A program made the translations under genes and the position numbers. Under the pieces are notes generated by a model. It was not told the origin of the DNA. It saw nothing but the letters and a program-made list of their open reading frames with translations, and did no database searches. Source: Escherichia coli (lineage in GTDB: Bacteria > Pseudomonadota > Gammaproteobacteria > Enterobacterales > Enterobacteriaceae). Taken from it: a DNA stretch of 64,000 nucleotides. Positions 2,007 through 61,557 of the stretch are shown here, one piece after another (positions within the stretch are counted from its first letter, which is position 1; every line of letters starts with the position of its first letter). Location of the stretch: assembly GCF_048403405.1 (NCBI RefSeq), contig NZ_CP183129.1; one strand, 5' to 3'.

Positions 2007-3299
2007 TTAGTGCTGTTCAACCAACTCATCCAGCTTTTTCTGGCTCGTTTGCAGCGTGCCAGGGAGGTCGGCTTTACCCACGGTGACGTTATGCACCATG
2101 GAGCTCACCACGCCAGAACCCGTCACATCGCCCATGCGGGTAAAATTTTTATCCCCTACTGCGCCAAAGACCTGAATATTTGGCAGTTCGCTGATTAACT
2201 GATTTGGCAGCTCACCCAGCGCCTTAATAACGTCGTTGTCTTTCCAGGTGGCGGTAGTGACAACCGCTTTGTTCACCGGCAGCGCCGCGCCTGGCGACAT
2301 CATCACCCAGTCGGCAATGTTGTCTGCCTGCTCCATAAAGGTGACAAATTTTTCTGCTGCTTCCGTCTCTTCGGTCTTTTGCCCGGCGGTAATGGTCAGC
2401 GAGGTCAACATGCCGTAGACCGCAGAGTTTTTCTCGGTTGGCACCACGAAACCGACGTTTTTCGGATCGCCTTCTTTAATTACAGCCGGAAGGATATAGG
2501 TGGAGTAAATCGCCAGCGGCGCGGTGCCGTTCATAAAGGCGTCTTTCACTTCCATGATGTCGTTAGAACCCGGCATCGTGTTGGCGGCAAGGTCGCGGTA
2601 ATAGGTCAGCGCCTGCATCATCTCTGGGGTATCAAGGGTGATTTTGCCTTCTGCGTTAAAGACGTTGGCCTGGTTGGATAACGCAAACTGGGAGAAGGAT
2701 TGTTCCGTCAGTACGCTTTCTGCCGTCGGCAGTGCAATGCCGTATTTTTTATTCGCCGGGTCATTCAGTTTCTGTGCAACGTCCAGTAGCTGTTGCCAGT
2801 TTTTCGGCTCCTCCAGCCCCGCTTTTGCCAGCACATCTTTGCGATACCAGATGCCGCCAATCCAGGCACTCACAGGAACACCGGTCCATGCGCTACCATC
2901 TTCGGTGCGCACAATACGCAGTACGCCATCGTAAAACGCGCCTTCACCCACGTTGCTGATGACTGTGGCAACCGCTTTGCGATCGATAAGCTGCTCTTTG
3001 TCCATAACTTTGGCGTAGTCATGGCTGGTTTCGATCACTTCCGGCAGTGAGCCGCTACGTGACAGGGTTATGACTTTGGTGTTATAGGCATCTTCTTCCA
3101 CTGGCACTTGTTTAACGGTGATGCCCGAGTTTTCTTTTTCAAAACGGGCAATCAATTTACTGATAACGGCTTGACGCTCCTGCTCCACCGAAGAATGCAT
3201 AAATTCGATGGATACATGGGTTTTATTTTCTTCTTTACAGCCTGAAATCAGGGCGCAGGAAACCAGTGCTGATAACAGCACGATTTTTGATTTAATCAT
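2007..3299 (-). CDS. ycjN: ABC transporter periplasmic sugar-binding lipoprotein
   Basis: 430-aa ORF with signal peptide and lipobox (LISGC); synteny. Confidence 0.88.
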   Translation of the reverse strand: MIKSKIVLLSALVSCALISGCKEENKTHVSIEFMHSSVEQERQAVISKLIARFEKENSGITVKQVPVEEDAYNTKVITLSRSGSLPEVIETSHDYAKVMDKEQLIDRKAVATVISNVGEGAFYDGVLRIVRTEDGSAWTGVPVSAWIGGIWYRKDVLAKAGLEEPKNWQQLLDVAQKLNDPANKKYGIALPTAESVLTEQSFSQFALSNQANVFNAEGKITLDTPEMMQALTYYRDLAANTMPGSNDIMEVKDAFMNGTAPLAIYSTYILPAVIKEGDPKNVGFVVPTEKNSAVYGMLTSLTITAGQKTEETEAAEKFVTFMEQADNIADWVMMSPGAALPVNKAVVTTATWKDNDVIKALGELPNQLISELPNIQVFGAVGDKNFTRMGDVTGSGVVSSMVHNVTVGKADLPGTLQTSQKKLDELVEQH

Positions 3300-3313
3300 G
3301 AGATGTTCCTTTT

Positions 3314-4993
3314 TTATTTAATCCACATAACCTGCCAGGGGCGCAGCGTTATTTCATTACCCAATATATCAACTTCACTAATCAGATCCCGACCGTGCAG
3401 ATCAGTAATATTTATATGCTGAATATTTTCACTGACATTAAACAATCCTGTCAGACAATTACCATCCGCGTTGTTTCTTTGAATACGCATTACGGATGAA
3501 TTAACCGTGTCGATGGTAAAATCATTATCCGGATGAAACTCGTTATGACTGCAACGAAGTGTAATTAAACGCGACAACTGATGATATACCGCATGCCTTA
3601 ATGTATCTTCATCGTTCAGTTCTCGGGTTATCTCTTCATTGTGATATTTTTTACGGTTAATCGCACGGTTATATCCCAGTTTTTCGACACCTGCGTAATC
3701 ATTACGCGAGCCAAGAATACTTTGAATATATATCGCTGGCACACCGGGGAAACTTAACAAAATCGCATGGGCAAGGATAAACCTGGCACACCGCTCTTCA
3801 TCGCTACTCTCGCGGCGGCTTAACGCATCCATATAGGTGACATTTATTTCATAGGGACTGCGCGTACCGTCGGGATTATTTTTCCAGTTTACTAATGCAC
3901 CTTCCTGCTGTAACGCCTCGACCAGCGCTAATATTTCGCTTTCTGGTAACAAGCCACGCAGTGGGTTCAGCCCGATGCCATCGTGAGAGGCGAGGAAGTT
4001 AAACCAGGTGGTGTTGCTGGAAGGTAGTGTCAGGTTTTGCGCCCACGCACAAAGCGCCTCAACGTTCTGTTTTTGCACCGCATGCAGCACCAGCGGCGGC
4101 AGCGAGAACTGGTACACCATATGCGCTTCGTCATCGCCTTCGCCAAAGTAAGCAATGTTGTCTTTATGCGGAACATTGGTCTCGGTAATGATCACTGTAC
4201 CTGGTGCTACGTCATCAATAATCGACCGTAACAGCTTGATAATCAGATGTGTTTTTTCCAGATGGATGCAGCTTGTTCCTGGCTCTTTCCACATAAAGCC
4301 AACGGCATCCAGCCGGACATATTCTGCGCCCTTTTCCAGGTAGCACAGCAATACATCCACCATCGCCAGCAACACTTCAGGGCTACGGTAATTGAGGTCA
4401 ATTTGATCGTCGCTAAAGGTGGTCCATAAATGGCGCGTGGAATTATCATCCATTTGAAACGGTGTTAATAGCGGTAACGCACGCGGACGGGTGACGGCGC
4501 TGAGATCGGTTTGCGGATCAACAGCAATAAAAAAATCTTCAAAACCTGGCTGCTGTTGTAAATAGTTTTTAAACCATTCACTTTTTGCCGACATATGGTT
4601 GCAGACAAAATCAAACATTAAATGACTGCATTCACCGAGTTGCTGAATATCCTGCCACTCCCCCGCTTCACTGGCGACCTGATGATAATCAATTACCGAA
4701 AACCCATCATCAGATGACCATGGATAAAAAGGTAATAAATGAACATGTGAAAAAATGCTTTGCAGCCATTGATGGTAAAACTGATTAAATGTGGGTAGTG
4801 GTTTTAAATCATTACTGTGAAATTGATCAGCATAGGTAATTAACACGACATCACTTTCATCCCAGTGTTTTTTACGTCGCTGTGTAATTAATCGTTTCGC
4901 ACTCTCAAGACGCGTTACAAGTTTCTGTAAATGAGTCGCGGTAAATGTTCCACCGTAGATTTCGTCCAGGTAATCCGTAATTTTCTGTTTCAT
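3314..4993 (-). CDS. ycjM: GH13 sucrose-phosphorylase-like enzyme (glucosylglycerate phosphorylase)
   Basis: ORF track 3314..5020; start refined to internal ATG at 4991-4993 giving 559 aa, matching YcjM. Confidence 0.82.
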   Translation of the reverse strand: MKQKITDYLDEIYGGTFTATHLQKLVTRLESAKRLITQRRKKHWDESDVVLITYADQFHSNDLKPLPTFNQFYHQWLQSIFSHVHLLPFYPWSSDDGFSVIDYHQVASEAGEWQDIQQLGECSHLMFDFVCNHMSAKSEWFKNYLQQQPGFEDFFIAVDPQTDLSAVTRPRALPLLTPFQMDDNSTRHLWTTFSDDQIDLNYRSPEVLLAMVDVLLCYLEKGAEYVRLDAVGFMWKEPGTSCIHLEKTHLIIKLLRSIIDDVAPGTVIITETNVPHKDNIAYFGEGDDEAHMVYQFSLPPLVLHAVQKQNVEALCAWAQNLTLPSSNTTWFNFLASHDGIGLNPLRGLLPESEILALVEALQQEGALVNWKNNPDGTRSPYEINVTYMDALSRRESSDEERCARFILAHAILLSFPGVPAIYIQSILGSRNDYAGVEKLGYNRAINRKKYHNEEITRELNDEDTLRHAVYHQLSRLITLRCSHNEFHPDNDFTIDTVNSSVMRIQRNNADGNCLTGLFNVSENIQHINITDLHGRDLISEVDILGNEITLRPWQVMWIK

Positions 4994-7297: not shown

Positions 7298-8275
7298 ATG
7301 GCAGAATACAAAGATAATTTACTCGGTGAGGCGAACAGCTTTCTCGAAGTGCTGGAACAGGTTTCGCATCTCGCACCGCTGGACAAACCGGTGCTCATCA
7401 TCGGCGAGCGCGGCACAGGTAAAGAGCTCATTGCCAGCCGTCTGCATTATCTCTCCTCCCGTTGGCAGGGGCCGTTTATTTCCCTTAACTGCGCGGCGTT
7501 AAATGAAAATCTGCTGGATTCCGAACTGTTTGGTCACGAAGCGGGCGCGTTTACCGGTGCGCAAAAACGTCATCCAGGGAGATTTGAACGTGCCGACGGC
7601 GGTACGCTATTTCTTGATGAACTCGCTACGGCACCGATGATGGTGCAGGAGAAATTATTGCGCGTGATTGAGTACGGTGAACTGGAGCGCGTCGGCGGCA
7701 GCCAGCCATTGCAGGTGAATGTACGGTTGGTATGCGCGACGAATGCCGATCTCCCGGCGATGGTCAATGAAGGTACTTTTCGCGCTGACCTACTCGACCG
7801 GCTGGCTTTCGATGTAGTGCAACTGCCGCCCCTGCGCGAGCGCGAAAGCGACATTATGCTGATGGCAGAACACTTTGCCATTCAGATGTGTCGGGAAATC
7901 AAGCTGCCTCTGTTCCCGGGGTTTACGGAGCGCGCCAGAGAAACATTGCTGAATTATCGCTGGCCGGGAAATATTCGTGAATTGAAAAACGTGGTGGAAC
8001 GTTCAGTGTATCGCCACGGCACCAGCGATTATCCGCTTGATGACATCATTATTGATCCCTTTAAACGGCGTCCGCCTGAAGACGCTATCGCCGTTTCAGA
8101 AACCACCTCGCTTCCAACACTGCCGCTGGATTTACGTGAGTTTCAGATGCAGCAGGAAAAAGAGTTGCTGCAACTCAGTTTGCAACAAGGGAAATATAAC
8201 CAGAAGCGCGCGGCTGAATTGCTGGGGTTAACCTATCATCAGTTCCGCGCGTTGTTGAAAAAGCACCAGATTTAG
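7298..8275 (+). CDS. pspF: Sigma-54-dependent transcriptional activator PspF
   Basis: AAA+ sigma-54 activator motifs (GERGTGKE, GAFTGA) and C-terminal HTH; start refined to ATG 7298 (325 aa). Confidence 0.9.
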   Translation: MAEYKDNLLGEANSFLEVLEQVSHLAPLDKPVLIIGERGTGKELIASRLHYLSSRWQGPFISLNCAALNENLLDSELFGHEAGAFTGAQKRHPGRFERADGGTLFLDELATAPMMVQEKLLRVIEYGELERVGGSQPLQVNVRLVCATNADLPAMVNEGTFRADLLDRLAFDVVQLPPLRERESDIMLMAEHFAIQMCREIKLPLFPGFTERARETLLNYRWPGNIRELKNVVERSVYRHGTSDYPLDDIIIDPFKRRPPEDAIAVSETTSLPTLPLDLREFQMQQEKELLQLSLQQGKYNQKRAAELLGLTYHQFRALLKKHQI

Positions 8276-8296
8276 CGAAGTTGGGCAATACAACTT

Positions 8297-8377
8297 GCCG
8301 GATGCGGCGTGAACGCCTTATCCGGCATACATAATCAATACGTCGTTTGCAGGCCTGATAAGCGCAGCGTATCAGAC
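8297..8377. repeat. REP/BIME-like palindromic elements in the pspF-puuE convergent intergenic region
   Basis: GCCGGATGCGGCGTGAACGCCTTATCCGGC (8297-8326) plus a second GCCTGATAAGCGCAGCGTATCAG palindrome; typical E. coli REP sequence style. Confidence 0.45.
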
Positions 8378-8394
8378 ATTATTGCGTTGGGCTA

Positions 8395-9660
8395 TTAATC
8401 GCTCAGCGCATCCTGCAAAATTTTCATTGCCGCATCGAATTGCGCATCCGGGATGGTCAGCGGATACAGGAAACGAATCACGTTGCCGTATGCGCCACAG
8501 GTCAGTAGAAGCAGCCCCTGCGCCAGCGCGCGTTGCTGGATTTTCTGTGCAATCGCCGCTGACGGCTCGCCCGTTTGCGGATCGTTAAACTCTGCCGCAA
8601 TCATAGACCCCAGACCGCGTACCGCCGCGATGGCCGGAACGCTTTCTTTGGCATCAATCAACGTGTTTGTCAGGCGCTGGCCCAGTTGATTCGCGCGTTC
8701 ACAGAGTGATTCTTTGTCGATAATGTTGAGCACAGCGTGCGCGGCAGCCACCGCCAGCGGGTTCCCGGCGTAGGTACCACCCAACCCGCCCGGCGCGGGC
8801 GCGTCCATAATATTCGCGTTACCGACCACGCCCGAAAGCGGCATCCCGCCCGCGAGGCTTTTCGCCATCGTCATTAAGTCCGGCTTATCGGCGTAGTGAT
8901 CCATGGCAAACAGTTTACCGGTACGCGCAAAGCCGCTTTGCACTTCATCGGCAATCATCACAATGCCGTGCTCGTCGCACAGGCGGCGAATGGCGGCAAC
9001 CAGCTCTGTTGGTGCAACGTTGAAACCGCCTTCGCCCTGCACCGGTTCGAAAATAATCGCCGCCACCTGCTTCGCTTCAATGTCCGATTTAAACAAGCGT
9101 TCGATGGCGTCGAGAGAGTCCTGCGTTGAAACGCCATGTAAATCTGACGGATAAGGTACGTGATATACCGAACCGGGGAACGGGCCGAAGCCGATTTTGT
9201 ACGGCGCGACCTTTCCGGTCAGCGCCATGGTCATATATGTACGACCGTGGAAGCCGCCGCTAAACGCAATCACGCCAGGGCGTCCGGTATGGGCGCGGGC
9301 GATTTTCACCGCGTTCTCCACCGCTTCCGCACCGGTGGTGAAGAACGCAGTTTTAGCCTGCCCGCTCACCGGGGCAAGGGCGTTAATTTTCTCCGCCAGG
9401 GTGACGTAGCTTTCGTACGGCACAATCTGATACGCCGTGTGGGTAAACTGTTGCAATTGCTGCTCCACCGCCGCGACCAGATCAGGGTGGCGATGCCCGG
9501 TATTCAGCACCGCAATGCCTGCGGCGAAATCGATGTATTCGTTGCCCTCTACATCCTTCAGCGTGGCGTTTTCTGCCGACTGGGCGAAGAAGTTACACAT
9601 CACGCCAACCCCGCGTGGGGTAGCAGAAAGACGACGCTGATGGAATTCATTGTTGCTCAT
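8395..9660 (-). CDS. puuE: 4-aminobutyrate aminotransferase (PLP-dependent)
   Basis: 421-aa class-III aminotransferase ORF; synteny in puu cluster. Confidence 0.88.
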   Translation of the reverse strand: MSNNEFHQRRLSATPRGVGVMCNFFAQSAENATLKDVEGNEYIDFAAGIAVLNTGHRHPDLVAAVEQQLQQFTHTAYQIVPYESYVTLAEKINALAPVSGQAKTAFFTTGAEAVENAVKIARAHTGRPGVIAFSGGFHGRTYMTMALTGKVAPYKIGFGPFPGSVYHVPYPSDLHGVSTQDSLDAIERLFKSDIEAKQVAAIIFEPVQGEGGFNVAPTELVAAIRRLCDEHGIVMIADEVQSGFARTGKLFAMDHYADKPDLMTMAKSLAGGMPLSGVVGNANIMDAPAPGGLGGTYAGNPLAVAAAHAVLNIIDKESLCERANQLGQRLTNTLIDAKESVPAIAAVRGLGSMIAAEFNDPQTGEPSAAIAQKIQQRALAQGLLLLTCGAYGNVIRFLYPLTIPDAQFDAAMKILQDALSD

Positions 9661-9697: not shown

Positions 9698-10978
9698 TTA
9701 AACGCCCAGACGATCGCGCAGGCTGTAATAAGCCGCGCCCATCGCGGTAAACGGAACGCGCAGCGTGCGCCCGCCGGGGAACGGGTAATGCGGCAGATTG
9801 GCGAAGGCGTCGAAGCGCTCGGCGTCACCGCGCAGCAGTTCAGCAATCAAACGCCCGGCGAGGTGGGTACAGGTGACGCCGTGGCCGCTGTAGCCCTGCA
9901 TGTAGTAGATGTTGGTATCGAGGCGACCAAACTGCGGCATGCGTGACAGGGTCAGCAGGAAGTTGCCCGTCCAGCGGTAATCAATTTTCACGCCCTTCAG
10001 TTGCGGGAAGGTTTTCAGCAGTTTCGGCACCACAAGGCGCTCAACATCGTCCGGGTCGCGTGCGCCGTAGACCACGCCGCCGCCGTACAGCAGGCGGTTA
10101 TCGGCAGTCAGACGGTAGTAATCAAGCAGATAGTTACAGTCTTCAACGCAGTAGTTTTTCGGGATCAGCGAACGGGCTAAATCATCGGAAAGCCGCTCGG
10201 TGGTGATCACCTGCGTGCCGCACGGCATGCTGCGTTTCGCCAGTTCCGGTTCCACTTTATCGCCCAGATACGCATTCCCGGCGACAATCACGTATTTCGC
10301 CGTCACCTGACCTTTGGCAGTTCGCACAACGGCTGGCGTGGTGTGCTGGATCTGCGTCACGGCAGAAAGTTCATACACGCGCCCGCCGTTCAGGCGGATG
10401 GCGTCCGCTTCGCCAATGGCGAGGTTTAGCGGATGAATATGCCCACCGCTGTGATCCAGCAGCGCACCAGTGTAGCGATCGCTGGCGACCTCGCGGCGAA
10501 TAGCGTTGGCGTCCAGCAGCTCCAGCTGTTTATTGCCGTAGCGTTCCCAGTTCTCTTTCTGCTCTTCGAGTGTGGCGAGCTGTTTATCATTCATCGCCAC
10601 AAACAGGCCGCCGGGGCGGTAGTCGCAGTCAATCTGATAACGTTTGATACGTTCGCGGATGATCTCGCCGCCTTCGAACATCATGCTGCCGAGCATACGG
10701 GCGGTGTCCATGCCGTAGTTTTTTTCAATGACGTCGATGTCGCGGCTGTAGGAGTTCACAAGCTGCCCGCCGTTGCGTCCGCTTGCGCCGAAGCCGATGC
10801 GTGAGGCTTCAAGAACCACCACGTCAAAGCCCGCTTCCGCCAGATGCAGCGCGGAAGAAAGCCCGGTATAGCCGCCGCCGACCACGCAAACATCGCAGGA
10901 AATCGACTCATTCAGCGTGTCGAATGGTGCGTATTTATTCGCACTGGCGGCGTAATAACTGCTGGTATGTTCGGTCAT
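9698..10978 (-). CDS. puuB: Gamma-glutamylputrescine oxidase (FAD-dependent)
   Basis: 426-aa ORF with N-terminal FAD-binding GxGxxG (VVGGGYTG); synteny. Confidence 0.88.
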   Translation of the reverse strand: MTEHTSSYYAASANKYAPFDTLNESISCDVCVVGGGYTGLSSALHLAEAGFDVVVLEASRIGFGASGRNGGQLVNSYSRDIDVIEKNYGMDTARMLGSMMFEGGEIIRERIKRYQIDCDYRPGGLFVAMNDKQLATLEEQKENWERYGNKQLELLDANAIRREVASDRYTGALLDHSGGHIHPLNLAIGEADAIRLNGGRVYELSAVTQIQHTTPAVVRTAKGQVTAKYVIVAGNAYLGDKVEPELAKRSMPCGTQVITTERLSDDLARSLIPKNYCVEDCNYLLDYYRLTADNRLLYGGGVVYGARDPDDVERLVVPKLLKTFPQLKGVKIDYRWTGNFLLTLSRMPQFGRLDTNIYYMQGYSGHGVTCTHLAGRLIAELLRGDAERFDAFANLPHYPFPGGRTLRVPFTAMGAAYYSLRDRLGV

Positions 10979-12467: not shown

Positions 12468-12616
12468 TATGACTCCTGTTTCACGTCTATCAGATATATG
12501 CAGTTTGTGAACGTCAGGGCGCAGAGATCCCCGGGCCGTATGCCCGTTTATTTCTGGCGACATTCTTTATGGATTGCCGGGCGCATTGCGCTTACCCGGC
12601 TTACAGAACAAAAAGA

Positions 12617-15897: not shown

Positions 15898-17283
15898 ATG
15901 GCTATTAATTCACCACTAACTATTGCTGCGCAATCTGGCAAAACCCGTCTGCGAAAATCACTGAAATTGTGGCAGGTGGTGATGATGGGTCTGGCCTATC
16001 TCACGCCGATGACCGTATTTGATACTTTTGGTATTGTCTCCGGCATTAGCGACGGTCACGTTCCGGCGTCCTATTTGCTGGCGCTGGCGGGCGTGCTGTT
16101 TACCGCTATCAGCTACGGCAAACTGGTTCGCCAGTTTCCGGAAGCCGGTTCGGCCTATACCTACGCGCAAAAGTCGATTAACCCGCACGTCGGATTTATG
16201 GTCGGCTGGTCATCACTGCTGGATTATCTCTTTTTGCCAATGATCAACGTTTTATTGGCGAAAATCTATCTCTCCGCCCTCTTCCCGGAAGTGCCGCCGT
16301 GGGTGTGGGTGGTAACCTTCGTCGCCATTTTAACCGCCGCGAATCTGAAGAGCGTCAACCTGGTCGCTAACTTCAATACCCTGTTTGTACTGGTGCAAAT
16401 CTCCATCATGGTGGTGTTTATCTTCCTGGTGGTTCAGGGACTGCATAAAGGAGAAGGCGTTGGCACAGTCTGGTCACTTCAGCCGTTTATCAGCGAGAAC
16501 GCGCACCTGATCCCGATTATTACCGGGGCGACGATTGTCTGTTTCTCCTTCCTCGGTTTCGATGCGGTGACCACGCTTTCGGAAGAGACGCCGGACGCCG
16601 CACGCGTGATCCCAAAAGCCATCTTCCTGACGGCGGTATACGGCGGCGTTATCTTTATCGCTGCGTCGTTCTTTATGCAGCTGTTCTTTCCCGATATCAG
16701 CCGCTTTAAAGACCCGGACGCCGCACTGCCTGAAATTGCGCTGTACGTCGGCGGCAAGCTCTTCCAGTCGATTTTCCTCTGCACCACGTTTGTGAACACG
16801 TTAGCGTCTGGCCTGGCTTCACATGCCAGCGTGTCGCGTCTGCTGTATGTGATGGGGCGTGACAATGTGTTTCCGGAGCGCGTGTTTGGCTATGTGCACC
16901 CGAAATGGCGCACGCCAGCGCTGAACGTCATTATGGTCGGGATTGTTGCGCTGTCGGCGCTGTTCTTTGATTTAGTCACCGCGACAGCATTGATTAACTT
17001 CGGTGCTCTGGTGGCATTTACCTTCGTAAATCTGTCGGTGTTTAATCATTTCTGGCGGCGTAAAGGAATGAATAAAAGCTGGAAGGATCACTTTCACTAT
17101 TTGCTGATGCCGCTGGTTGGCGCGCTGACGGTGGGTGTGCTGTGGGTTAACCTCGAGTCAACGTCACTGACACTCGGTCTGGTATGGGCTTCGTTAGGCG
17201 GCGCATATTTGTGGTATCTGATCCGCCGCTATCGCAAAGTGCCGTTGTATGATGGTGACAGAACGCCGGTGAGCGAAACGTAA
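15898..17283 (+). CDS. puuP: Putrescine importer (APC-family amino acid/polyamine permease)
   Basis: ORF track 15844..17283; start refined to ATG 15898 (461 aa); 12-TM permease. Confidence 0.87.
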
Positions 17284-17416
17284 TAGTCGGATGCGCGGCG
17301 CATTATCCTGCCTGAGGGTAATGCACCGCGCCATTAACTATAAAAAGATGTATGACCCGGATCACGAGTGCTATCATCCGCCCTTATGCTTAGCGCATTA
17401 ACCCCAGGGGCAAATA

Positions 17417-17662
17417 ATGAACCACGATATCCCGCTAAAATATTTTGATATTGCCGATGAGTACGCGACCGAATGCGCAGAGCCTGTCGCAGACGCTGAA
17501 CGCACACCGCTGGCCCACTACTTCCAGTTACTGCTCACCCGTTTGATGAACAATGAAGAGATCAGCGAAGAAGCCCAACATGAAATGGCTGCTGAAGCGG
17601 GGATTAATCCCGTACGCATTGATGAGATCGCAGAGTTTTTGAATCAATGGGGTAATGAGTAA
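17417..17662 (+). CDS. ymjA: Small conserved protein YmjA (DUF2543)
   Basis: 81-aa acidic ORF between puuP and sapA; synteny. Confidence 0.72.
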
Positions 17663-17695
17663 TTATTTCATTGCAGACGCTCGGTCAGTATCGTT

Positions 17696-17726
17696 GCCCG
17701 GATAAAGCGTTCACGCCGCATCCGGC
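17696..17726. repeat. REP element
   Basis: GCCCGGATAAAGCGTTCACGCCGCATCCGGC palindromic unit in the ymjA-sapA intergenic region. Confidence 0.45.
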
Positions 17727-17974
17727 TAAAAATGACACGCACTGCAGCGTGCTTTAATGGGGTTCTCACGATCGTACCGCTCTGCTCCTCGCTAAGTTGT
17801 TCTGTGAGTTATAGTTATAGAGAAATCACGGGTACGAATGTTGAACAGATGGCGACGTCACCTGTTCAACGACCAACCACACGGCCCTCATTACGACCCC
17901 TGAACACAAACGGTAATGGCAAATGTCATTAAATATTAGTAAGATAGCCTCTTTACATAAAATCCATTAATATT

Positions 17975-23265: not shown

Positions 23266-23302
23266 ACCTCATCCTGACAGGGGCCCCCCTCAGGATGAGG
23301 TG
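23266..23302. terminator. Bidirectional stem-loop between convergent sapF and the MFS transporter gene
   Basis: Perfect 13-bp inverted repeat CACCTCATCCTGA / TCAGGATGAGGTG around a G/C-rich loop, filling the 49-bp gap between two convergent stop codons. Confidence 0.55.
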
Positions 23303-23306
23303 TTCA

Positions 23307-24470
23307 TTACTTTTGATTGTCGATTCTGGTGAGAGCAACCAGCAATGCCAGCGTATAACACACCGTAATTGCCAGACTCATTTTTAACAGTGTTTCTCCG
23401 CCAATTCCCGACAATGGCGCGGCTATACCGCCGAAGACAAACATGCTCATCCCCATCAACGCAGACGCCGTTCCAGATTCCTGCGTCCCTACTGCACTCA
23501 TAGCCTCTGCCCCGCCAACAGTGCCGATGCCGCTACAAAATGCGATGGTGAAAAATAATGCCACCAGTGCCGGAATGGGCAATTGTATCCATGCGCATAA
23601 GACCGTGAGCAATGCACACAAAATTGCCGCTATCAGGCCACCTCGCAACAATGTCATCGCGTTAATCCGTCGCGCCAGGCGCGAGAAGATCCATGAAGCA
23701 ATGATAAGTCCGATGCCGTTAAGGCCAAACACCAGGCTAAATTGCATTGGATTAAAGCCAAATTCCTTCTGCAACACGAACGACGAAGAGCCGATATATG
23801 CAAACAAACCGGCCAGCATAAAACTTTGAATCAGGCAAAAGCGCATAAAACGGCGGTTCTGCACCACGCTTCGTCCGGTTAATAGCAATGATGAGCCCCT
23901 TTTATTTTCTGGCAAGGTCTCATTAATAAATAACAGGCAGCCCAGCAACAGTACGGTGCTAATTTCAGCCATTACCCAGAATAAAGTGCGCCAGTCAAAA
24001 GTGCTGACAATGTACCCGCCCAGCACTGGCGACAACACCGGTGCCAGGCCATTCACCGTCATTAACAGCGCAAAAAACTGGGTCAACGTTACTCCCTGAT
24101 ATTTGTCACGAGCAATAGAACGAGAGAGCACCGAACCACCCGCCCCCGCGATCCCTTGAATAAAACGCCAGACCACCAGCCAGTAAATATTGTTCGTTGT
24201 CGCGCACAAAATGGAAGAAACAATAAACAATAGCAACGACAAGATTAACGGACGTTTACGCCCTATTTTGTCGCTCAGAGGGCCAAATAACAGTTGTCCG
24301 ACGCCAAGACCGATCAGTGATGCAGTCAGCGTTAATTGCGTTATGGTCGTGGTTGCCGCCAGTTGCTCAGACATCTCCGGCAAAGCCGGCAAATAAAGAT
24401 CGGTACACATCGGGCCGATACCGGCTAAAAGACCAAGAATCAATGCCCATGAAAGAGAGACTCTAGCCAT
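23307..24470 (-). CDS. MFS drug/H+ antiporter, Bcr/CflA (DHA1) family, 12 TM
   Basis: 387-aa ORF with MFS signature region GPLSDKIGRKRP and 12 predicted TM segments; 8 bp downstream of the OMF gene. Confidence 0.8.
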   Translation of the reverse strand: MARVSLSWALILGLLAGIGPMCTDLYLPALPEMSEQLAATTTITQLTLTASLIGLGVGQLLFGPLSDKIGRKRPLILSLLLFIVSSILCATTNNIYWLVVWRFIQGIAGAGGSVLSRSIARDKYQGVTLTQFFALLMTVNGLAPVLSPVLGGYIVSTFDWRTLFWVMAEISTVLLLGCLLFINETLPENKRGSSLLLTGRSVVQNRRFMRFCLIQSFMLAGLFAYIGSSSFVLQKEFGFNPMQFSLVFGLNGIGLIIASWIFSRLARRINAMTLLRGGLIAAILCALLTVLCAWIQLPIPALVALFFTIAFCSGIGTVGGAEAMSAVGTQESGTASALMGMSMFVFGGIAAPLSGIGGETLLKMSLAITVCYTLALLVALTRIDNQK

Positions 24471-24478
24471 ATTATTCC

Positions 24479-25852
24479 TTACTTGAGTGATGACATGCCG
24501 CCGCCCAGCGACTGCCAGAGCGTGATTCGGTTTGTAAAATCAGTCAGTTGTAGTGCCAGCAGCGCCTGCTGTGCGCTCCACAAGCTGCGCTGCGCCGTCA
24601 ACACGGTCAGGTAATCACCAACACCCGCCTGATAGCGACGCAAGCCAACATCGACCGTTTGTTGCTCAGCTTTAACATACTGGCGCTGTGCATCCAGTTG
24701 CTCTTCAAGCGTGGTCCGCCGCGCCAGTGCGTTAGCGACATCTTTAAATGCGCTCTGAACGGTTTTTTCATAGGTGGCAATGAGTCCACGCTTTTGTGCT
24801 TCTGCGTAACGAAGCTGCGCCAGATTACTTCCGCCAGTGAACAGCGGTAATGTGACCGATGGCGTAAATGACCAGATCTGCATTCCGTGGCTGAACAACG
24901 ACGACAATGCTTCACTGCCAACACCAGCGCTGGCAGTCAGCGAAATCGTCGGAAAAAAGTTAGCCCGCGCCGCGCCAATATCGGCATTGGCGCTCTTCAA
25001 ATTATGTTCCGCTTCCTGGATATCCGGGCGACGCAGCAGAACGTCAGATGACACTCCCGCAGGAACCAGACTTATCATCTGTTCCGGCAGGCTTTCCAGT
25101 GTTCCCGGTAGCAAATTTTCCTCAAGCGTTGTACCTGCCAGTAAGTTCAGCGCATTTTTATCCTGCATCACTTGTGTCTGATAGCTGGCAACGCTGGCGC
25201 GCGCTTGCTGATAAACACTCATCGCCTCACTGACATCTGTCGCTGCCGCCGTGCCAACCTGTTGCTGGCGCTGGATAATTTTCAATGAGTTTTCTGCACT
25301 GGCCATCGTTTCTTTTGCCAGGGCCAGGTTGCTGTTATCAGCCGCCAGTGTCAGCCAGGCGGTGCTGATTTCAGCAATCAGCGTTAAACGAGTGTTCTGG
25401 GCTGTAAATTCACTGGCAAGCCAGGTTTCCCGCGCCGCCCGAGATAAACTCTGATTACGACCAAACAGATCTAACGTAAAACTGGACACCGTGCCGTCAG
25501 CCTCGGCAGTGGTTTCCGTACCATTCGCCAGCGAACGACTGCGGGTTGAACTTAAGGCCGCATTCACCGTCGGGAATAACGACGCATTAGTTTGCCCATA
25601 GAGCGCCCGTGCTGAGTCAATATCAGCAATCGCTTTTTGCACATCGCGGTTACTGTTCAGTGCAATAGTCACCACCTGCTGCAATCGGGGATCGTGGATC
25701 ACCTGCTGCCAGTCATGGCTGATTGCCTTTCCCTGGCCCTGTGCTCCCGGCAAGGTCGCCGGGATTGGGGATTCAGGCGTGCTGTAGTGGGGCTCGAGCG
25801 AGACACATCCCGCACTCAACAGCACCAGAAAAATAAGAGAACGACGCAACAT
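24479..25852 (-). CDS. Outer-membrane efflux lipoprotein, NodT/OprM family
   Basis: 457-aa ORF with lipoprotein signal (LLSAGC) and OprM-like outer membrane factor repeats; 3 bp downstream of the RND gene. Confidence 0.85.
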   Translation of the reverse strand: MLRRSLIFLVLLSAGCVSLEPHYSTPESPIPATLPGAQGQGKAISHDWQQVIHDPRLQQVVTIALNSNRDVQKAIADIDSARALYGQTNASLFPTVNAALSSTRSRSLANGTETTAEADGTVSSFTLDLFGRNQSLSRAARETWLASEFTAQNTRLTLIAEISTAWLTLAADNSNLALAKETMASAENSLKIIQRQQQVGTAAATDVSEAMSVYQQARASVASYQTQVMQDKNALNLLAGTTLEENLLPGTLESLPEQMISLVPAGVSSDVLLRRPDIQEAEHNLKSANADIGAARANFFPTISLTASAGVGSEALSSLFSHGMQIWSFTPSVTLPLFTGGSNLAQLRYAEAQKRGLIATYEKTVQSAFKDVANALARRTTLEEQLDAQRQYVKAEQQTVDVGLRRYQAGVGDYLTVLTAQRSLWSAQQALLALQLTDFTNRITLWQSLGGGMSSLK

Positions 25853-25855
25853 AAC

Positions 25856-28800
25856 TTACTCCTGACGGCGCGGTTTACCGGCAAACAAACGTTTCACCAG
25901 TACAAAAAACAGAGGAACAAAGAAAATAGCCAGCAACGTAGCGGTCAGCGTACCGCCAATAATGCCCGTACCAATGGCGATGCGGCTGTTCGCCCCTGCG
26001 CCGGTTGCTATCGCCAGCGGCATTACCCCCGCAATAAACGCCAGCGAGGTCATGATGATTGGGCGTAAACGAGTCTGCGCCGCGCGTAATGCCGCACGAC
26101 TCAAGGAATAGCCCTCTGCAACCGCCGCTTCAGCAAATTCCACAATCAGAATGGCGTTTTTCGACGACAAGCCGATAGTGGTTAATAGCGCCACCTGGAA
26201 GTAAACATCGTTGTTTAAATCACGCATCCAGGCCGCCAGCGCCGCGCCAAGAAGCCCCAGAGGGATCACCAGAATGACCGAGAACGGGACTGACCAGCTT
26301 TCGTACAGTGCTGCAAGGCAGAGGAAAACCACCAGAATAGAAACTGCATACAGACTCAATGCCTGACCGCTGGCCAGTTTCTCCTGCAATGACAAACCAC
26401 TCCAGGCCCAGGTTGTTCCCGCAGGAAGACTGTTTGCCAGTTCCTCCATTTTTGTCATTGCATCGCCGGAACTAAAGCCAGTCGCATTTTCCCCCTGAAT
26501 TTCATAGGCTGCAGAACCGTTGTAGCGCACCAGTCTTTCCGGTCCATACAGCCAGCGGGTGGTTGCAAAAGCAGAGAATAGTGTCATGGCGTTATCGCTA
26601 CCGCGCACAAACCATTTACCTAAGTCTGACGGCGTGGAACGAAATTCACTGTCGCCCTGAATGTAGACTTTTTTCACACGACCACGGTCAATAAAGTCAT
26701 TCACATAAGTACCGCCCCACGCACTGGACAGGGTGTCGGTGACATCATTCAAACTCAACCCTAATGACACCGCTTTATTACTATCAATATCTACCTGCAA
26801 TTGCGGCATTTGTGGCAAATCATTGGCACGCACAGAATGTAACTCCGGACTTTGATTCGCTTTTTCTATCAACTGATTACGCATTTGCAGTAGTGTTTCG
26901 CGATCGGTTCCACCGTTAGCTAACAATTCAAACGTAAAACCATTGCTTTGCCCCAGCCCATCAACGGCTGGCGGCGTCATCGCAAATACCGTGGCATCAC
27001 GAATTGTGCCCAGCTCTTTGGTTGCCCGTAGGGCGATAGCCTGGGCGGTGTTTTCTGCCCCTTTACGTTGAGACCAGTTTTTCAACGAAACAAACGCCAT
27101 CCCGGTGTTCTGTCCGCTGCCGCTAAAACTGAAACCATCAACGGTAAAAATGACATCGGTATTTGCTTTCTCATTAATCAGGAACCAGTCAACAATCTGG
27201 CGATTCACTTCTGCTGTACGGGCAGCGGTCGCCCCGGCCGGCAGCGTGTACTGCACCATGATTTCGCCCTGGTCTTCAGTGGGTAAGAAACTGCCCGGCA
27301 GTTTCCACATCATCAGGGCCATTCCACCACCCAGTACGACATAAAGCCCCATCGTTCGAGCAGCACGGCGCAGGACATAAATTACGCCTCGCTGATATTT
27401 ATCTTCAGTACGGCGGTAAAAGCGGTTAAATGCGCCGAAAAAGCCTTTTTTATGTGGCGGAACATGCTGGAGGACGGAACCGCACAGGGCGGGAGTCAAG
27501 GTCAATGCCACTACCACGGAAAGCAGCATTGCGGAGATAATGGTTATCGAAAACTGACGATAAATTACCCCCGTAGATCCCCCAAAGAAGGCCATAGGCA
27601 GGAATACGGCTGACAACACCAGCGCAATGGCAACCAGTGCGCCAGAAATCTCGCCCATTGATTTTTCCGTGGCTTCACGCGCGGGCAACCCTTCGTCACG
27701 CATAATACGTTCGACGTTCTCCACCACCACAATGGCATCGTCCACCAGCAAGCCGATCGCCAGCACCATTGCAAACAACGTCAGGGTATTAATCGAATAG
27801 CCAAACAACGCAAGAACGCCGAATGTGCCCAGCAAAACGACGGGGACAGCTAACGCCGGAATCAGTGTGGCACGCAGGTTTTGCAGGAATAAATACATCA
27901 CGCAAACCACCAATACGATGGCTTCAAACAGCGTCTGAATTACGTCCTCTACAGAGATTTTAATAAATTCAGTGCTGTCTTTCGGGTATGCGATGTCGTA
28001 TCCCTGCGGCATGTTCCGCTGGAATTCGGCAATCTTATCCTTGACCAGCGTCGCCGTATTCAGCGCATTCGCACCGGGCGAAAGCATTACAGCAACCCCG
28101 GCAGACGGGTGACCGTTAAGTTTGCCGATAGCGGTATAATCTTCACTGCCCATCTCAACGCGAGCCACATCTTTTATACGAACAACTGCGCCGTCTGACT
28201 GGCTTTTCACGATAATATTTTTGAACTGATCCACCGTCTGCAAGCGAGACTGCGCACGTACCGTTGCGGTCAGTTGCTGAGTATTCGGTGAAGGCAATGC
28301 CCCTATTTTCCCGGCAGTAACCTGCACGTTTTGCGCTTCAATAGCACTTTGCACGTCTGAAGGCATTAGCGAGTAAGACGCCAGTTTGGCCGGGTCAAGC
28401 CAGATGCGCATAGCGTATTCCGCGCCAAAGACTTGCAGACTCCCCACACCTTCAACACGCGCCAGCGGGTCCTGAACGTTACTAACCAACCAGTCGGCGA
28501 TATCCGAACTGGAGGCTTTGTCAGTGGTGTCATACACGGCAGCAATCAGCAAAAAGTTGCTTTGTGATTTCTCCACCGTAACACCCGTTTGCTGCACTTC
28601 GCTGGGTAGGCGCGACTCCGCCTGCTGAATTTTATTCTGCACCTGAACCTGTGCAGTATCTGGATCGGTACCTTGTTCAAAGGTCACATTAATACTGACC
28701 GAACCATCAGAGCTGCTGGTTGAGCTGAAATAGAGTAAATTATCAAGCCCAGTGAGTTGTTGCTCGATAACCTGAGTCACGCTGTTCTCCAGCGTTTCGG

Positions 28801-28963
28801 CAGAAGCACCAGTATAAGTGGCTGAAATTTTAATGGTCGGTGGCGCAACGTCAGGATATTGCGCGACGGGCAATGTGCGAATAGCCAGAATCCCCGCCAA
28901 CATAATCAAAATGGCGATAACCCAGGCAAAGACCGGGCGGCGAACAAAAAAGCGCGAAAACAT
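25856..28963 (-). CDS. RND multidrug efflux permease (AcrB/MexB/HAE1 family)
   Basis: 1035-aa ORF with clear similarity to AcrB/MdtF but not identical to any K-12 RND pump I can recall; 12 TM plus large periplasmic loops. Confidence 0.9.
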   Translation of the reverse strand: MFSRFFVRRPVFAWVIAILIMLAGILAIRTLPVAQYPDVAPPTIKISATYTGASAETLENSVTQVIEQQLTGLDNLLYFSSTSSSDGSVSINVTFEQGTDPDTAQVQVQNKIQQAESRLPSEVQQTGVTVEKSQSNFLLIAAVYDTTDKASSSDIADWLVSNVQDPLARVEGVGSLQVFGAEYAMRIWLDPAKLASYSLMPSDVQSAIEAQNVQVTAGKIGALPSPNTQQLTATVRAQSRLQTVDQFKNIIVKSQSDGAVVRIKDVARVEMGSEDYTAIGKLNGHPSAGVAVMLSPGANALNTATLVKDKIAEFQRNMPQGYDIAYPKDSTEFIKISVEDVIQTLFEAIVLVVCVMYLFLQNLRATLIPALAVPVVLLGTFGVLALFGYSINTLTLFAMVLAIGLLVDDAIVVVENVERIMRDEGLPAREATEKSMGEISGALVAIALVLSAVFLPMAFFGGSTGVIYRQFSITIISAMLLSVVVALTLTPALCGSVLQHVPPHKKGFFGAFNRFYRRTEDKYQRGVIYVLRRAARTMGLYVVLGGGMALMMWKLPGSFLPTEDQGEIMVQYTLPAGATAARTAEVNRQIVDWFLINEKANTDVIFTVDGFSFSGSGQNTGMAFVSLKNWSQRKGAENTAQAIALRATKELGTIRDATVFAMTPPAVDGLGQSNGFTFELLANGGTDRETLLQMRNQLIEKANQSPELHSVRANDLPQMPQLQVDIDSNKAVSLGLSLNDVTDTLSSAWGGTYVNDFIDRGRVKKVYIQGDSEFRSTPSDLGKWFVRGSDNAMTLFSAFATTRWLYGPERLVRYNGSAAYEIQGENATGFSSGDAMTKMEELANSLPAGTTWAWSGLSLQEKLASGQALSLYAVSILVVFLCLAALYESWSVPFSVILVIPLGLLGAALAAWMRDLNNDVYFQVALLTTIGLSSKNAILIVEFAEAAVAEGYSLSRAALRAAQTRLRPIIMTSLAFIAGVMPLAIATGAGANSRIAIGTGIIGGTLTATLLAIFFVPLFFVLVKRLFAGKPRRQE

Positions 28964-30084
28964 CAGGCGTTGCCTCCATTAGCCTGAACTTCAACAGCCT
29001 TGACGGTCTGCCCTGAAGTGACTTTGGCAGAACCTTCAACAATCAGTCGGTCGCCGTTGTGCAGGCCGTTCAGCACCAGCCATTTATCACCATACGTTTC
29101 TCCCGTTTCGAGCGTTCGCTGCTCTACTTTATTGTCTTTATTCACCACCAGCGCAGTTGCATTGCCTTTAGCATCGCGCGTGACGCCCTGTTGCGGCGCG
29201 AGAATAGCGTCTTCCATCACGCCTTCATCGACACGAGCGCGAACAAACATTCCCGGTAATAACTGCTGTTGTGGATTGGGGAAAATCGCCCGTAATGTCA
29301 CCGAACCGGTAGACTCATCTACAGCGACTTCGGTGAGTTCCAGACGCCCTTTTTCGCTGTAGGTTGTGCCATCTTCCAGAATAAGTGAGACGCTCATGGT
29401 GTCACTGTTGGTCGCCAGTGACTGTTTACGCAGACGTAATAAATCGACACTGGAGCGAGTGAGGTCGACATACATTGTCTCCAGACCACGAATAGTCGTT
29501 AACGCTGTATCTTGCGACGCGGTCACCAGTGCGCCAGGGGTTACCGACGAAATGCCAATTCGCCCTGAAATCGGTGCGGTTACCGTGGTCCAGTCAAGAT
29601 TAATGCGCGCAGTTTCCAGCGCGGCTTTTTTCGCCTCTACACTGGCTTTATCTTGTGCACAGGTAGACTGAGCATCATCAGCATCCTGTTGTGAAACACC
29701 GTTCTCTTTCACCAGTCGGGCATAACGCTGCGCTTTCTGGCAATCGGCTTTTACCAGTGCCTGTGCTTGTTGTAATGCTGCCCGAGCTTCATTCCATGCA
29801 GCCTGATAACTGACCGCATCAATCTGGTAGAGAGGCTGTCCAGCCTTGACCAGATCCCCTTCCTTAAATAAGCGTTTCTGGATAATTCCCCCAACCTGCG
29901 GACGTACTTCAGCACTGAGCGCAGCACTGGTGCGTCCGGTTAATTCACTGACTACCGAGACCGGTTGAGATTTGACTGTAACAACGCCGACTTCTGTTTC
30001 TGACGGGGATGAATTGTTACTTTGCGTATTATCACAACCAGATAAGAGCAGCATTGCCACTACAGATGTTGCTATATACTTCAT
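28963..30084 (-). CDS. RND efflux membrane fusion protein (periplasmic adaptor lipoprotein)
   Basis: ORF track 28963..30117; start refined to ATG 30082-30084 (373 aa) preceded by GGAG; lipobox LLSGC; AcrA/MexA-like; stop overlaps the RND start. Confidence 0.85.
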   Translation of the reverse strand: MKYIATSVVAMLLLSGCDNTQSNNSSPSETEVGVVTVKSQPVSVVSELTGRTSAALSAEVRPQVGGIIQKRLFKEGDLVKAGQPLYQIDAVSYQAAWNEARAALQQAQALVKADCQKAQRYARLVKENGVSQQDADDAQSTCAQDKASVEAKKAALETARINLDWTTVTAPISGRIGISSVTPGALVTASQDTALTTIRGLETMYVDLTRSSVDLLRLRKQSLATNSDTMSVSLILEDGTTYSEKGRLELTEVAVDESTGSVTLRAIFPNPQQQLLPGMFVRARVDEGVMEDAILAPQQGVTRDAKGNATALVVNKDNKVEQRTLETGETYGDKWLVLNGLHNGDRLIVEGSAKVTSGQTVKAVEVQANGGNA

Positions 30085-30111
30085 TATTTTCTCCAGGGTG
30101 AGAAATACCCT

Positions 30112-30131
30112 CCTCATTAAAATTAATGAGG
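30112..30131. promoter_or_regulatory. Candidate TetR-family operator upstream of the efflux operon
   Basis: Inverted repeat CCTCATTAA-aa-TTAATGAGG with perfect 9-bp arms between the TetR gene and the MFP gene; further palindromes at 30169-30184 and 30195-30212. Confidence 0.35.
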
Positions 30132-30232
30132 ATATGTCAGGGATATTCAGTTATAACGAACCCGCATCGCGAAATGAATTTCGCAATGAAATAAGGGGGA
30201 TTAATATCCCCCGCTATTGGTTAATTCTGTTC

Positions 30233-30799
30233 TTATTTATTTATCAACATACTAACAATATCCTGATATATTTCCTGCAGATGTTGTGGATCGCTTTTTT
30301 GCGGTGTTAAACGACGATAAACCGTACCTTCCATCATGGTAGCAAACACTTCAACGCAGCAACGAATGTGCTCGTCGCTAAGATGGGGATGCATTCTTTT
30401 CATATGTGCACAACCGTTAGCGAACATTCTGGCGTCAGCTTCTTCAAGCATTGCCATAACCCGCGGGTTGCGTGTGGCTTCTGCAGCCACTTCCAGCATC
30501 AGCGCGTCGTCGTCCTCATTTAAGGATTTACGCAAGGCAAGGACTTCCGGGAAGTGATCGGTACGCGCGTCAATGTCCATTTGGGCAATACGAAAGTCGA
30601 TGATACGGCGAACCATCTCTTCAATAATGGCGTCTTTGTTGGCGAAGTAACGATATATCTGACCCACGCTAAGCTGAGCTTCGCTGGCAATTTGCGACAT
30701 ACTGGCGGCATGAAACCCGCAGCGACGAAAACACCGACGGGCGGCGTTAATGATTTCATCCTGACGCTGTTTGTGGCGTATCTCCAGCTTGCTGGTCAT
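30233..30799 (-). CDS. TetR/AcrR-family transcriptional regulator
   Basis: ORF track 30233..30898; start refined to ATG 30797-30799 (188 aa) preceded by AGGAGA; N-terminal TetR HTH (SMSQIASEAQLSVGQIYRYFANKD). Confidence 0.8.
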   Translation of the reverse strand: MTSKLEIRHKQRQDEIINAARRCFRRCGFHAASMSQIASEAQLSVGQIYRYFANKDAIIEEMVRRIIDFRIAQMDIDARTDHFPEVLALRKSLNEDDDALMLEVAAEATRNPRVMAMLEEADARMFANGCAHMKRMHPHLSDEHIRCCVEVFATMMEGTVYRRLTPQKSDPQHLQEIYQDIVSMLINK

Positions 30800-46483: not shown

Positions 46484-46855
46484 AGCTCCTCCTTAATGAC
46501 AGGGTTGCGAAGCCCTGATTCTCTTCAGGGTGAATATTAAAGATAACACAAACATCGCGTAACGATTTGATAACAACCCAAATTGATAAAAGAGGAGAAA
46601 GCTTGTGGCAAAACAAATGAAAACCCCGCCGCAGCGGGGTCAGGGATCAGTGAGTAATGATCCAGAGGAGTTCGGCCCAGAAGAGCATCGACAGAGAAAA
46701 TGCGCCCATCCAGGACCAATATTTCATATTTGTGTTGATCATAGGCTACACCTTTAACGGTTATTACTTTGTGTTGAGATAACTCAACCTGTTATTGCTG
46801 CGGTGTATTAAAAGCCCTGTAATTCATTAAAAATGGGTAATAAGAATGATGATAA

Positions 46856-47484: not shown

Positions 47485-48483
<999 letters not shown>

Positions 48484-51936: not shown

Positions 51937-52640
51937 CCTATAAGGCTCTCTTACCAGCCGCGCCCTAACAGGCGCACACGATCTGACATTTGCATCCAAC
52001 TTCGTTACTTACGGCCCGTAAACGGGCTGCCCGGATAGGGAATCGATAACTGCTCTCCCATTTTATCCTCTTCAAGCTGGTGCTTTATGTAATCCTGTAT
52101 CTTCGCCGTGTTCTTACCCACCGTATCGACGTAGTACCCTCTGCACCAGAACTCCCTGTTCCTGTATTTGAATTTCAAATCACCAAACTGCTCGTAAAGC
52201 ATCAGACTGCTTTTCCCTTTCAGATATCCCATAAAGCCGGATACGCTCATTTTGGGCGGGATCTCCACAAGCATATGGATATGATCTGCACAGCATTCAG
52301 CTTCCAGAATCCGTACACTTTTCCACTCACACAGCTTTCTCAAAATACTGCCTATTGCTCTACGCTTCTCTCTGTAGAACACCTGTCTTCGGTATTTTGG
52401 CGCAAAAACTATGTGATATTTACAGTTCCATCGGGTGTGCGCTAAGCTCTTTTCGTTCCCCATTGGGACCCCCTTTTGATTTCTTGTTTGACACTTGCAG
52501 TTGCCAGACCGCAAGGTGTTTTAACAAATCAAAAGGGGTTTTAATAACTGGCTTAAAGCTGAAAGCTTTCCGGAACCCCCAGCCTAGCTGGGGGTTTTCT
52601 GTGCACAAACAAAACGCGAGGTCTTAGCCTCGCGTTTGTC
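51937..52640 (-). mobile_element. IS200-like insertion sequence (IS200/IS605 family), approximate boundaries
   Basis: Contains a Y1 transposase gene plus the characteristic stem-loops (52576-52596 and 52611-52636); not present between yciN and sohB in K-12. Ends estimated from the expected ~0.7 kb size. Confidence 0.7.
52005..52463 (-). CDS. tnpA: IS200 transposase TnpA (HUH Y1 transposase)
   Basis: ORF track 52005..52514; start refined to ATG 52461-52463 (152 aa MGNEKSLAHTRWNCKYHIVFAPKYRR...), HxH motif (HIHMLVEIPP). Confidence 0.85.
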   Translation of the reverse strand: MGNEKSLAHTRWNCKYHIVFAPKYRRQVFYREKRRAIGSILRKLCEWKSVRILEAECCADHIHMLVEIPPKMSVSGFMGYLKGKSSLMLYEQFGDLKFKYRNREFWCRGYYVDTVGKNTAKIQDYIKHQLEEDKMGEQLSIPYPGSPFTGRK

Positions 52641-52642
52641 TT

Positions 52643-61442: not shown

Positions 61443-61487
61443 ATGAAAGCAATTTTCGTACTGAAAGGTTGGTGGCGCACTTCCTGA
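61443..61487 (+). CDS. trpL: trp operon leader peptide
   Basis: ATGAAAGCAATTTTCGTACTGAAAGGTTGGTGGCGCACTTCCTGA encodes [14 protein letters not shown] with tandem Trp codons. Confidence 0.88.
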
Positions 61488-61528
61488 AACGGGCAGTGTA
61501 TTCACCATGCGTAAAGCAATCAGATACC

Positions 61529-61557
61529 CAGCCCGCCTAATGAGCGGGCTTTTTTTT
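61529..61557 (+). terminator. trp attenuator (3:4 terminator hairpin plus U-tract)
   Basis: AGCCCGCC-taat-GAGCGGGCT followed by TTTTTTTT, between trpL and trpE. Confidence 0.85.

Follow-up and report, generated by a model that had tools for sequence, protein, structure and literature searches.

A decayed, BIME-1-like pair of REP units in the pspF-puuE intergenic region of Escherichia coli

The window, which is the whole 64,000-nt stretch of E. coli DNA that was analysed, encodes pspF (+ strand) and puuE (- strand) in convergent orientation, with 119 bp between them. We identified two REP-type palindromic units in this gap. A Y-type REP (GCCGGATGCGGCGTGAACGCCTTATCCGGC, 8297-8326) starts 21 nt past the pspF stop codon (TAG, 8273-8275). 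It is read on the - strand, in the 'REP' orientation of Ton-Hoang, with the tetranucleotide 5' of the hairpin. Its arms are 15 nt each and 87% complementary, with a G.T/C.T mismatch pair in the stem. The unit is followed by ATAC (8327-8330, + strand), a decayed CTAC tail that reads GTAT instead of GTAG on the - strand. The linker between both tails (ATAATCAATACGTCGTTT, 8331-8348, no strand assigned) is 18 nt long and contains an IHF-like core (AATCAATACGTCG, 8333-8345) that matches WATCAANNNNTTR at 12 of 13 positions. GCAG (8349-8352, + strand), a decayed GTAG guide tetranucleotide, leads into the second unit, a short Z1-type REP (GCCTGATAAGCGCAGCGTATCAGAC, 25 nt, 8353-8377, + strand) that is inverted relative to the Y unit and ends 17 nt short of the puuE stop codon (complement of 8395-8397). 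The units are arranged tail to tail across the linker, in a single copy. Both are extragenic, bounded by the stop codons of pspF (8275) and puuE (8395). The original prediction of REP-type palindromes in this gap was borne out, as the 30-mer it quoted is the Y unit, the second, inverted unit was identified at 8353-8377, and the span it gave (8297-8377) runs exactly from the first base of one unit to the last base of the other. The gene names pspF, puuE, ymjA and sapA were also correct.

The window is 99.98% identical over 64 kb to the genome of E. coli MS 69-1 (one mismatch and two gap openings) and is collinear with its annotation, from ycjQ through psp, puu, sap, fabI and topA to trpE. This confirms the E. 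coli backbone that had been proposed from the repeats. One of the only three differences over the 64 kb is an indel near 9866 in puuB (9698-10978), which is an intact ORF of 426 aa in the window and is annotated as frameshifted in MS 69-1. Between sapF and fabI (23297-30789), the window encodes an MFS transporter, an outer-membrane factor, an RND permease, a periplasmic adaptor and a TetR regulator; K-12 presumably has only ycjD in this interval. The block looks like a strain-variable efflux island.

A scan with a REP consensus had been suggested as the way to check the palindromes. We searched both strands for a REP pattern made of two anchors, GCCKGATG and TTATCMGGC, spaced 8-23 nt apart, counted Hamming mismatches, and took 30 dinucleotide-preserving shuffles as the null. 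With at most one mismatch, two matches were found in the window (0.0 expected), and with at most two mismatches there were five (0.7 expected). The five are the Y unit (no mismatches), the Z1 unit (two mismatches, on the - strand), a unit between ymjA and sapA, a weak sequence after puuP (17286-17311), and a match in a coding region (48159-48193) that we take to be due to chance. The scan recovered all positive controls (six REPs flanking K-12 rayT, two between malE and malF, and two between mog and satP), every one of which ends in CCTAC. The units in the intergenic regions thus match the REP consensus far above chance.

Direct comparison gave the same answer. The reference was a canonical BIME-1 located between mog and satP in E. 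coli ATCC 11775. The Y unit of the window is identical to its Y unit at 30 of 30 positions, and the Z1 unit to its Z1 unit at 22 of 25 positions (24 of 25 for the E. whittamii orthologue). The sequence is also dispersed. A 401-bp query around the element matched 5425 of 5426 E. coli genomes, at a median of 31 megablast places per genome (minimum 6), by a count that needs an exact word of 28 nt. The segment with matches elsewhere in genomes and on plasmids is 8296-8328, which is the Y unit. The junction of a BIME-1 L motif with a Y REP, used as a query, is present exactly in 1009 E. coli collection records, and is covered to at least 80% in 5424 of 5426 genomes; the mog-satP element of ATCC 11775 is among these copies.

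REPs are described as extragenic, palindromic, short and multi-copy, with a common consensus (PMC12306157), and y, z1 and z2 types have been distinguished within the BIME scheme (PMC3333891). The units described here are extragenic, form palindromic stem-loops with an internal mismatch, match the consensus and have many dispersed copies. They differ in the GTAG that is conserved 5' of the hairpin foot, which is GTAT, GCAG or GTTG in the window. The interpretation as REPs is therefore supported; the pspF-puuE and ymjA-sapA units are members of this long-known family of E. coli repeats and a routine feature of the chromosome.

No Rfam match at gathering thresholds was found in either gap, the text of the RepRanger supplement does not mention pspF, puuE or ymjA, and the RefSeq record of K-12 has no repeat features in the pspF-puuE gap or in the malE-malF gap, so sequences were compared directly instead. 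Elsewhere in the window, Rfam matches at gathering level were obtained for the sRNA STnc180 (- strand, near ymiC and acnA) and the trp operon leader (46613-46815 and 61464-61557), both of which are expected here.

The pspF-puuE gap holds one copy of a BIME. BIME-1 elements consist of one z1 and one y unit in single copy with a long, well-conserved L linker, often with an IHF site, whereas BIME-2 elements are tandem z2/y arrays with short linkers (PMC3333891). The Z1 unit of the window has the length of z1 (25 nt) rather than that of the z2 control units (32 nt), and tandem repetition is absent. Because the linker is 18 nt rather than 35 nt long, with only AAAA..TCAATA aligning, we classify the element as BIME-1 (RIB/RIP)-like with a shortened, atypical linker, and not as a canonical BIME-1.

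The second site named in the original prediction, 17696-17726 between ymjA and sapA, is also a REP, although its palindrome actually starts at 17697. It is a single, degenerate Y-type unit on the + strand, consisting of GTTG and CCCGGATAAAGCGTTCACGCCGCATCCGGC (17693-17726; palindrome 17697-17726), with one mismatch to the REP pattern. By direct reading it is identical to the canonical Y unit at 28 of 30 positions, and its arms are 77% complementary. It is located 44 nt past the ymjA stop in a gap of 312 bp (ymjA ends at 17652 and sapA starts at 17965). Both intergenic regions had been called convergent; this holds for pspF-puuE but not for ymjA-sapA, where both genes are on the + strand and co-directional. 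The only terminator-like site identified in the ymjA-sapA gap is on the - strand (17752-17735), outside the REP. The unit is present in the B2 strains, in E. whittamii and in strain SCPM-O-B-8794 as well as in K-12, and is absent in Escherichia sp. MOD1-EC7003. Its tetranucleotide is already GTTG in E. whittamii, and an intact form was not seen.

Two other sequences in the window resemble REPs. A doubtful, possibly vestigial unit (GTCGGATGCGCGGCGCATTATCCTGC, 17286-17311, + strand, two mismatches to the pattern) is also found in K-12. It starts 12 nt past the stop codon of puuP, within the 15 nt for which an effect on translation has been reported, and does not form a stable hairpin (z +0.15). 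A REP-like hairpin just downstream of puuR (12576-12600, - strand, where it reads GTAA GCCGGGTAAGCGCAATGCGCCCGGC) has three mismatches and a hairpin z of -3.2; its membership in the family is uncertain. It is identical in K-12. Beside this hairpin, K-12 has a 125-nt insertion (7515-7639 of the extracted puuR-puuC locus) that is absent from the window (12570/12571). This inserted sequence is itself dispersed (median of 10 places per genome), and about half of the E. coli genomes have a copy of at least 99% identity. It looks like an ERIC/IRU element.

The pspF-puuE locus (301-bp query, at least 80% coverage) was found in 5320 of 5426 E. coli genomes (98%). Nine loci were obtained when the species representatives of GTDB were scanned for the C-terminus of PspF with a degenerate pattern. 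The element is complete in E. whittamii, where CCTAC and GTAG are canonical; it is also present in Escherichia sp. E1V33, and it is present with half of the Y unit deleted in E. albertii and in E. coli E69. In Salmonella arizonae, Salmonella diarizonae, Escherichia sp. MOD1-EC7003 and strain SCPM-O-B-8794, neither the puu cluster nor a BIME was found after pspF; pspF abuts sapA in the two Salmonella and ymjA in the two Escherichia lineages. In the B2 strains EC958, SSGNw1 and muskdeer13-4 the puu genes are deleted, and the BIME, the last 63 nt of puuE and a remnant of puuP are kept. The element is orthologous in K-12, in the 5320 E. coli genomes, in E. whittamii, in E. albertii and in another Escherichia species, and is thus an old, vertically inherited insertion; it is tied to the puu cluster. 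The pair predates the divergence of E. coli from both E. whittamii and E. albertii. A metagenome-assembled genome labelled Citrobacter sp. HRGM_Genome_0066 (DXKH01000083.1) is essentially E. coli in this region, with a BIME allele of the K-12 type and puuE; its label or its binning is probably wrong.

GTAG sits 5' of the REP hairpin, and each of its bases is needed for binding and cleavage by TnpA-REP (PMC3479197). None of the three guide tetranucleotides in the window is GTAG; these are GTAT for the Y unit, GCAG for the Z1 unit and GTTG for the ymjA-sapA unit. The tail of the Y unit is CCTAC in E. whittamii and Escherichia sp. E1V33 and CATAC in most E. coli. The tetranucleotide of the Z1 unit is GTAG in E. 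whittamii, E1V33 and E. albertii, and GCAG in all E. coli alleles examined. Since the E. whittamii orthologue has GTAG at both units, the pspF-puuE pair descends from regular REPs and has since decayed.

The REP transposase gene rayT and its flanks are present in 3501 of 5426 E. coli genomes, which agrees with the two-thirds reported previously (PMC3333891). Neither rayT nor hicAB was found at this REPtron locus in MS 69-1, where the gap between lfhA and yafL is 97 bp (17151-17247 of the extracted locus); the REP that comes first past yafL is truncated and breaks off after GTAGGACGG. At the pspF-puuE locus, six genomes are identical to the window, and these have 8-9 megablast places for the query that contains the Y unit, compared with the median of 31. 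Low REP counts are documented for some clades (PMC3333891). The difference could be due to REP decay after loss of the transposase or to membership in a low-REP clade, and the low count is in keeping with a lineage that has few consensus Y copies. The REP copies of the window are best seen as fossils that are probably immobile.

We evaluated DNA hairpin stability as z relative to shuffles, for single-stranded DNA. The Y unit forms a stable hairpin (z -4.4 and -5.4). Hairpins of the Z1 unit (z about -1.5) and the ymjA-sapA unit (z about -1.6) are weak, and no more stable than shuffles. At the RNA level, the Y hairpin dominates the predicted fold of the pspF-sense transcript, and in the puuE-sense transcript the Z1 and Y hairpins both form and dominate. 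Each of the two 122-nt RNAs has a z of -2.7 relative to shuffles. A terminator scan of both strands of 8276-8394 did not identify a hairpin-plus-T-run site. With the gap lacking an intrinsic terminator, the REP hairpins are the only stable 3'-end structures available to the pspF and puuE mRNAs.

For REP hairpins in 3' UTRs, the literature describes a barrier to 3'-to-5' exonucleases, stabilisation of the mRNA upstream, and attenuation of transcription (PMC12306157; PMC3333891). As neither strand has a hairpin followed by a U run, we infer that the pspF (+) and puuE (-) transcripts most likely end at the REP hairpins or are trimmed back to them. The pspF transcript would meet the strong Y hairpin 21 nt past its stop codon, and the puuE transcript would meet Z1 17 nt past its stop codon and then Y. 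By blocking 3'-to-5' exonucleases, the hairpins would determine where both mRNAs end and how long they persist, and they may limit read-through into the opposing convergent gene. Ribosome stalling and lower translation have been reported for REPs less than 16 nt (within 15 nt) from a stop codon. Such an effect is not expected for pspF or puuE, because the units are 21 nt and 17 nt from the stops.

Over 11 alleles and species, 95% of the cells of the stem alignment are paired, compared with 25-43% when the partners are slid. Covariation scores in this set were not above those of column shuffles, and only one compensatory pair was found, a change from G-C to A-U in SSGNw1; we therefore do not claim selection on the structure from the covariation test. 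Where just one side of the Y stem has changed, the substitution is in most cases C>T or A>G (+ strand), which keeps G.U pairs in the pspF-sense RNA and would break pairing in the puuE-sense RNA. This strand bias hints at selection on the hairpin at the 3' end of pspF, in a set of few and phylogenetically linked alleles that includes disruptive ones. Damaged alleles exist in nature; the Y stem is disrupted in the B2 strains, a C>A change breaks the stem in FORC_029, and TUM14664 has a 2-nt deletion in the IHF-like core. Most of the linker has been kept between E. albertii and E. coli, with T>C, C>T and a 2-nt deletion as population variants. It seems quite unlikely that the short, largely conserved linker and the Y hairpin together constitute a locus-specific regulatory device instead of a generic repeat, for example an IHF-dependent insulator and 3'-end determinant that sets PspF levels; the strand bias in the stem would speak for such a device.

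The palindromes had been suggested to act as sites for gyrase or IHF. Matches to the IHF consensus with at most one mismatch number 75 in the window, compared with 57 expected by chance, so the match of the linker at 12 of 13 positions proves nothing alone. The K-12 locus is reportedly the subject of a 1997 paper by Jovanovic and Model in the Journal of Bacteriology (179:3095), 'The RIB element in the goaG-pspF intergenic region of Escherichia coli', which is said to describe IHF binding and an effect on pspF transcripts. The gene goaG is puuE, and the RIB element of that paper is the same locus and element as the pair in the window. Based on the motif and on what that paper is said to contain, the linker may be a candidate IHF site, like the linkers of BIME-1 elements. 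IHF rather than gyrase is the partner to be expected, because the architecture is BIME-1-like and gyrase is associated with BIME-2. The suggestion is thus narrowed to possible binding of IHF, as gyrase cleavage is documented for BIME-2 (PMC3333891, PMC6379681).

The palindromes had also been proposed as targets for IS insertion, and an example was found at this very site. In E. coli EE72d (NZ_CP065136.1) a 1430-bp element of the IS3 family (2571-4000 of the extracted locus) is inserted in the loop of the orthologous Y unit, at a point equivalent to 8313/8314 of the window. It lies between GCGGCGTGAAT and GAATGCTTTGTCCGGC, is flanked by a 4-bp target duplication (GAAT), and has the ends TGAACTG...CAGTTCA. 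Its transposase is annotated as frameshifted. The window has an IS of another kind, a copy of IS200C between yciN and sohB (about 51950-52660), with tnpA on the - strand (about 52006-52464). An Rfam match to STnc490 (52473-52596) corresponds to the 5' leader RNA of this copy, and no REP is visible at its junctions.

We consider the most probable explanation of the pspF-puuE element to be an old, decayed, BIME-1-like REP pair with an inferred role at the 3' ends of the two mRNAs and a putative IHF site in its linker (probability about 0.85 for this explanation as a whole). The pair might instead be a neutral relic that has no part in the expression of pspF or puuE. The decayed guides and the lack of rayT at the REPtron locus of the lineage are in keeping with a relic, as are the natural alleles with an IS insertion, partial deletions or stem-breaking substitutions, and the lack of significant covariation. 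Also, where pspF abuts ymjA or sapA, the element is absent and is not replaced by another REP-type hairpin. However, the pair has been kept at one site since before E. albertii and E. coli diverged, 98% of E. coli genomes have it, and B2 strains retained it when the puu cluster was deleted. The 95% pairing of stem cells and the lack of another terminator in the gap speak against neutrality too, and the effect on pspF transcripts reportedly described for the K-12 locus by Jovanovic and Model in 1997 also counts against it. On balance, a purely neutral relic seems rather unlikely.

Convergent transcription builds up positive supercoils in gaps of this type, and y-type REPs are cleaved by gyrase more often than z2-type REPs (PMC6379681), so the element could act at the DNA level as a strong gyrase site that relieves supercoiling. 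We see a slim chance of this, given that enrichment was shown for tandem Y/Z2 arrays of BIME-2, whereas the locus has a single Y and Z1 pair. That the pair is a still-mobile REPIN or BIME, cleaved and copied by RayT (TnpA-REP), is very improbable, even though the Y hairpin is the consensus Y unit bound by RayT and 3501 of 5426 genomes have rayT. The tetranucleotides are GTAT and GCAG rather than GTAG, and single-base changes impair both binding and cleavage (PMC3479197); in addition, the position is fixed across species and MS 69-1 lacks rayT at the REPtron site. Hardly credible is the idea that the hairpins are locus-specific, bidirectional intrinsic terminators that merely resemble REPs. In favour of terminators are the position, where two convergent genes end, and the hairpins that form on both strands, but no hairpin is followed by a T/U run, the terminator scan of the gap was negative, and the Y unit is identical at 30 of 30 positions at unrelated loci, with tens of copies per genome. 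As a statement of what the element is, we therefore rejected this reading: the Y unit is a dispersed repeat. Action of a REP hairpin as a weak or Rho-assisted terminator is compatible with the decayed BIME-1-like pair that we favour.

The element is already known and belongs to textbook E. coli biology; it is not a discovery. Its importance is mostly for annotation, and it confirms the E. coli backbone. The 3' ends of pspF and puuE would be bounded by REPs and not by terminators, which is useful for prediction of transcript ends and for the design of deletions. Comparative analysis adds that the BIME is older than the split of E. coli and E. albertii, that it travels with the puu cluster, and that it outlived deletion of the cluster in B2 strains. 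It also adds an IS strike on a REP loop in one strain, and a lineage (that of the window) that appears to have lost the REP transposase.

The IS in EE72d resembles IS1397 and ISKpn1 in that it is an IS3-family element located exactly in the Y loop with a 4-bp duplication; it is present in EE72d and not in the window. Loop-specific insertion into palindromic units is described for IS1397 and ISKpn1, both of the IS3 family (cited in PMC1525189). The REPs of REPtrons, which are substrates of RayT (PMC3333891, PMC3479197), have the same Y hairpin family and the same two-base mismatch in the stem. The units of the window lack GTAG, and MS 69-1 lacks rayT at the REPtron locus, so processing is not expected. 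With BIME-2 the element has the Y unit in common, but it lacks a Z2 unit and an S linker and is not amplified in tandem.

The closest known counterpart is at the same locus. The goaG(puuE)-pspF element of K-12 is also in a gap of 119 bp (K-12 coordinates about 1,366,816-1,366,934) and consists of the same units, Y and Z1, on either side of the same 18-nt linker; identity over the aligned region is 98%. Five substitutions distinguish the two. K-12 has C>T at three positions in the 3' arm of Y, which turns G-C pairs of the stem into G-T/G-U, and T>C at one position in Z1; the fifth change is upstream. The Y unit of the window has the consensus form. The REP between ymjA and sapA is shared with K-12 as well. 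The canonical BIME-1 of the mog-satP gap (ATCC 11775) comprises Z1 (25 nt), CTAC, a 35-nt linker (AAAATCGTGCAAATTCAATATATTGCAAGAAGATC), GTAG and Y (30 nt). The pspF-puuE element differs from it in the length of the linker, which is 18 nt compared with the 35-nt L, and in the mutation of both tetranucleotides. It is like the canonical BIME-1 in having inverted Y and Z1 units with their tails facing the linker, in single copy and in a convergent gap, and its linker starts similarly and holds an IHF-like core.
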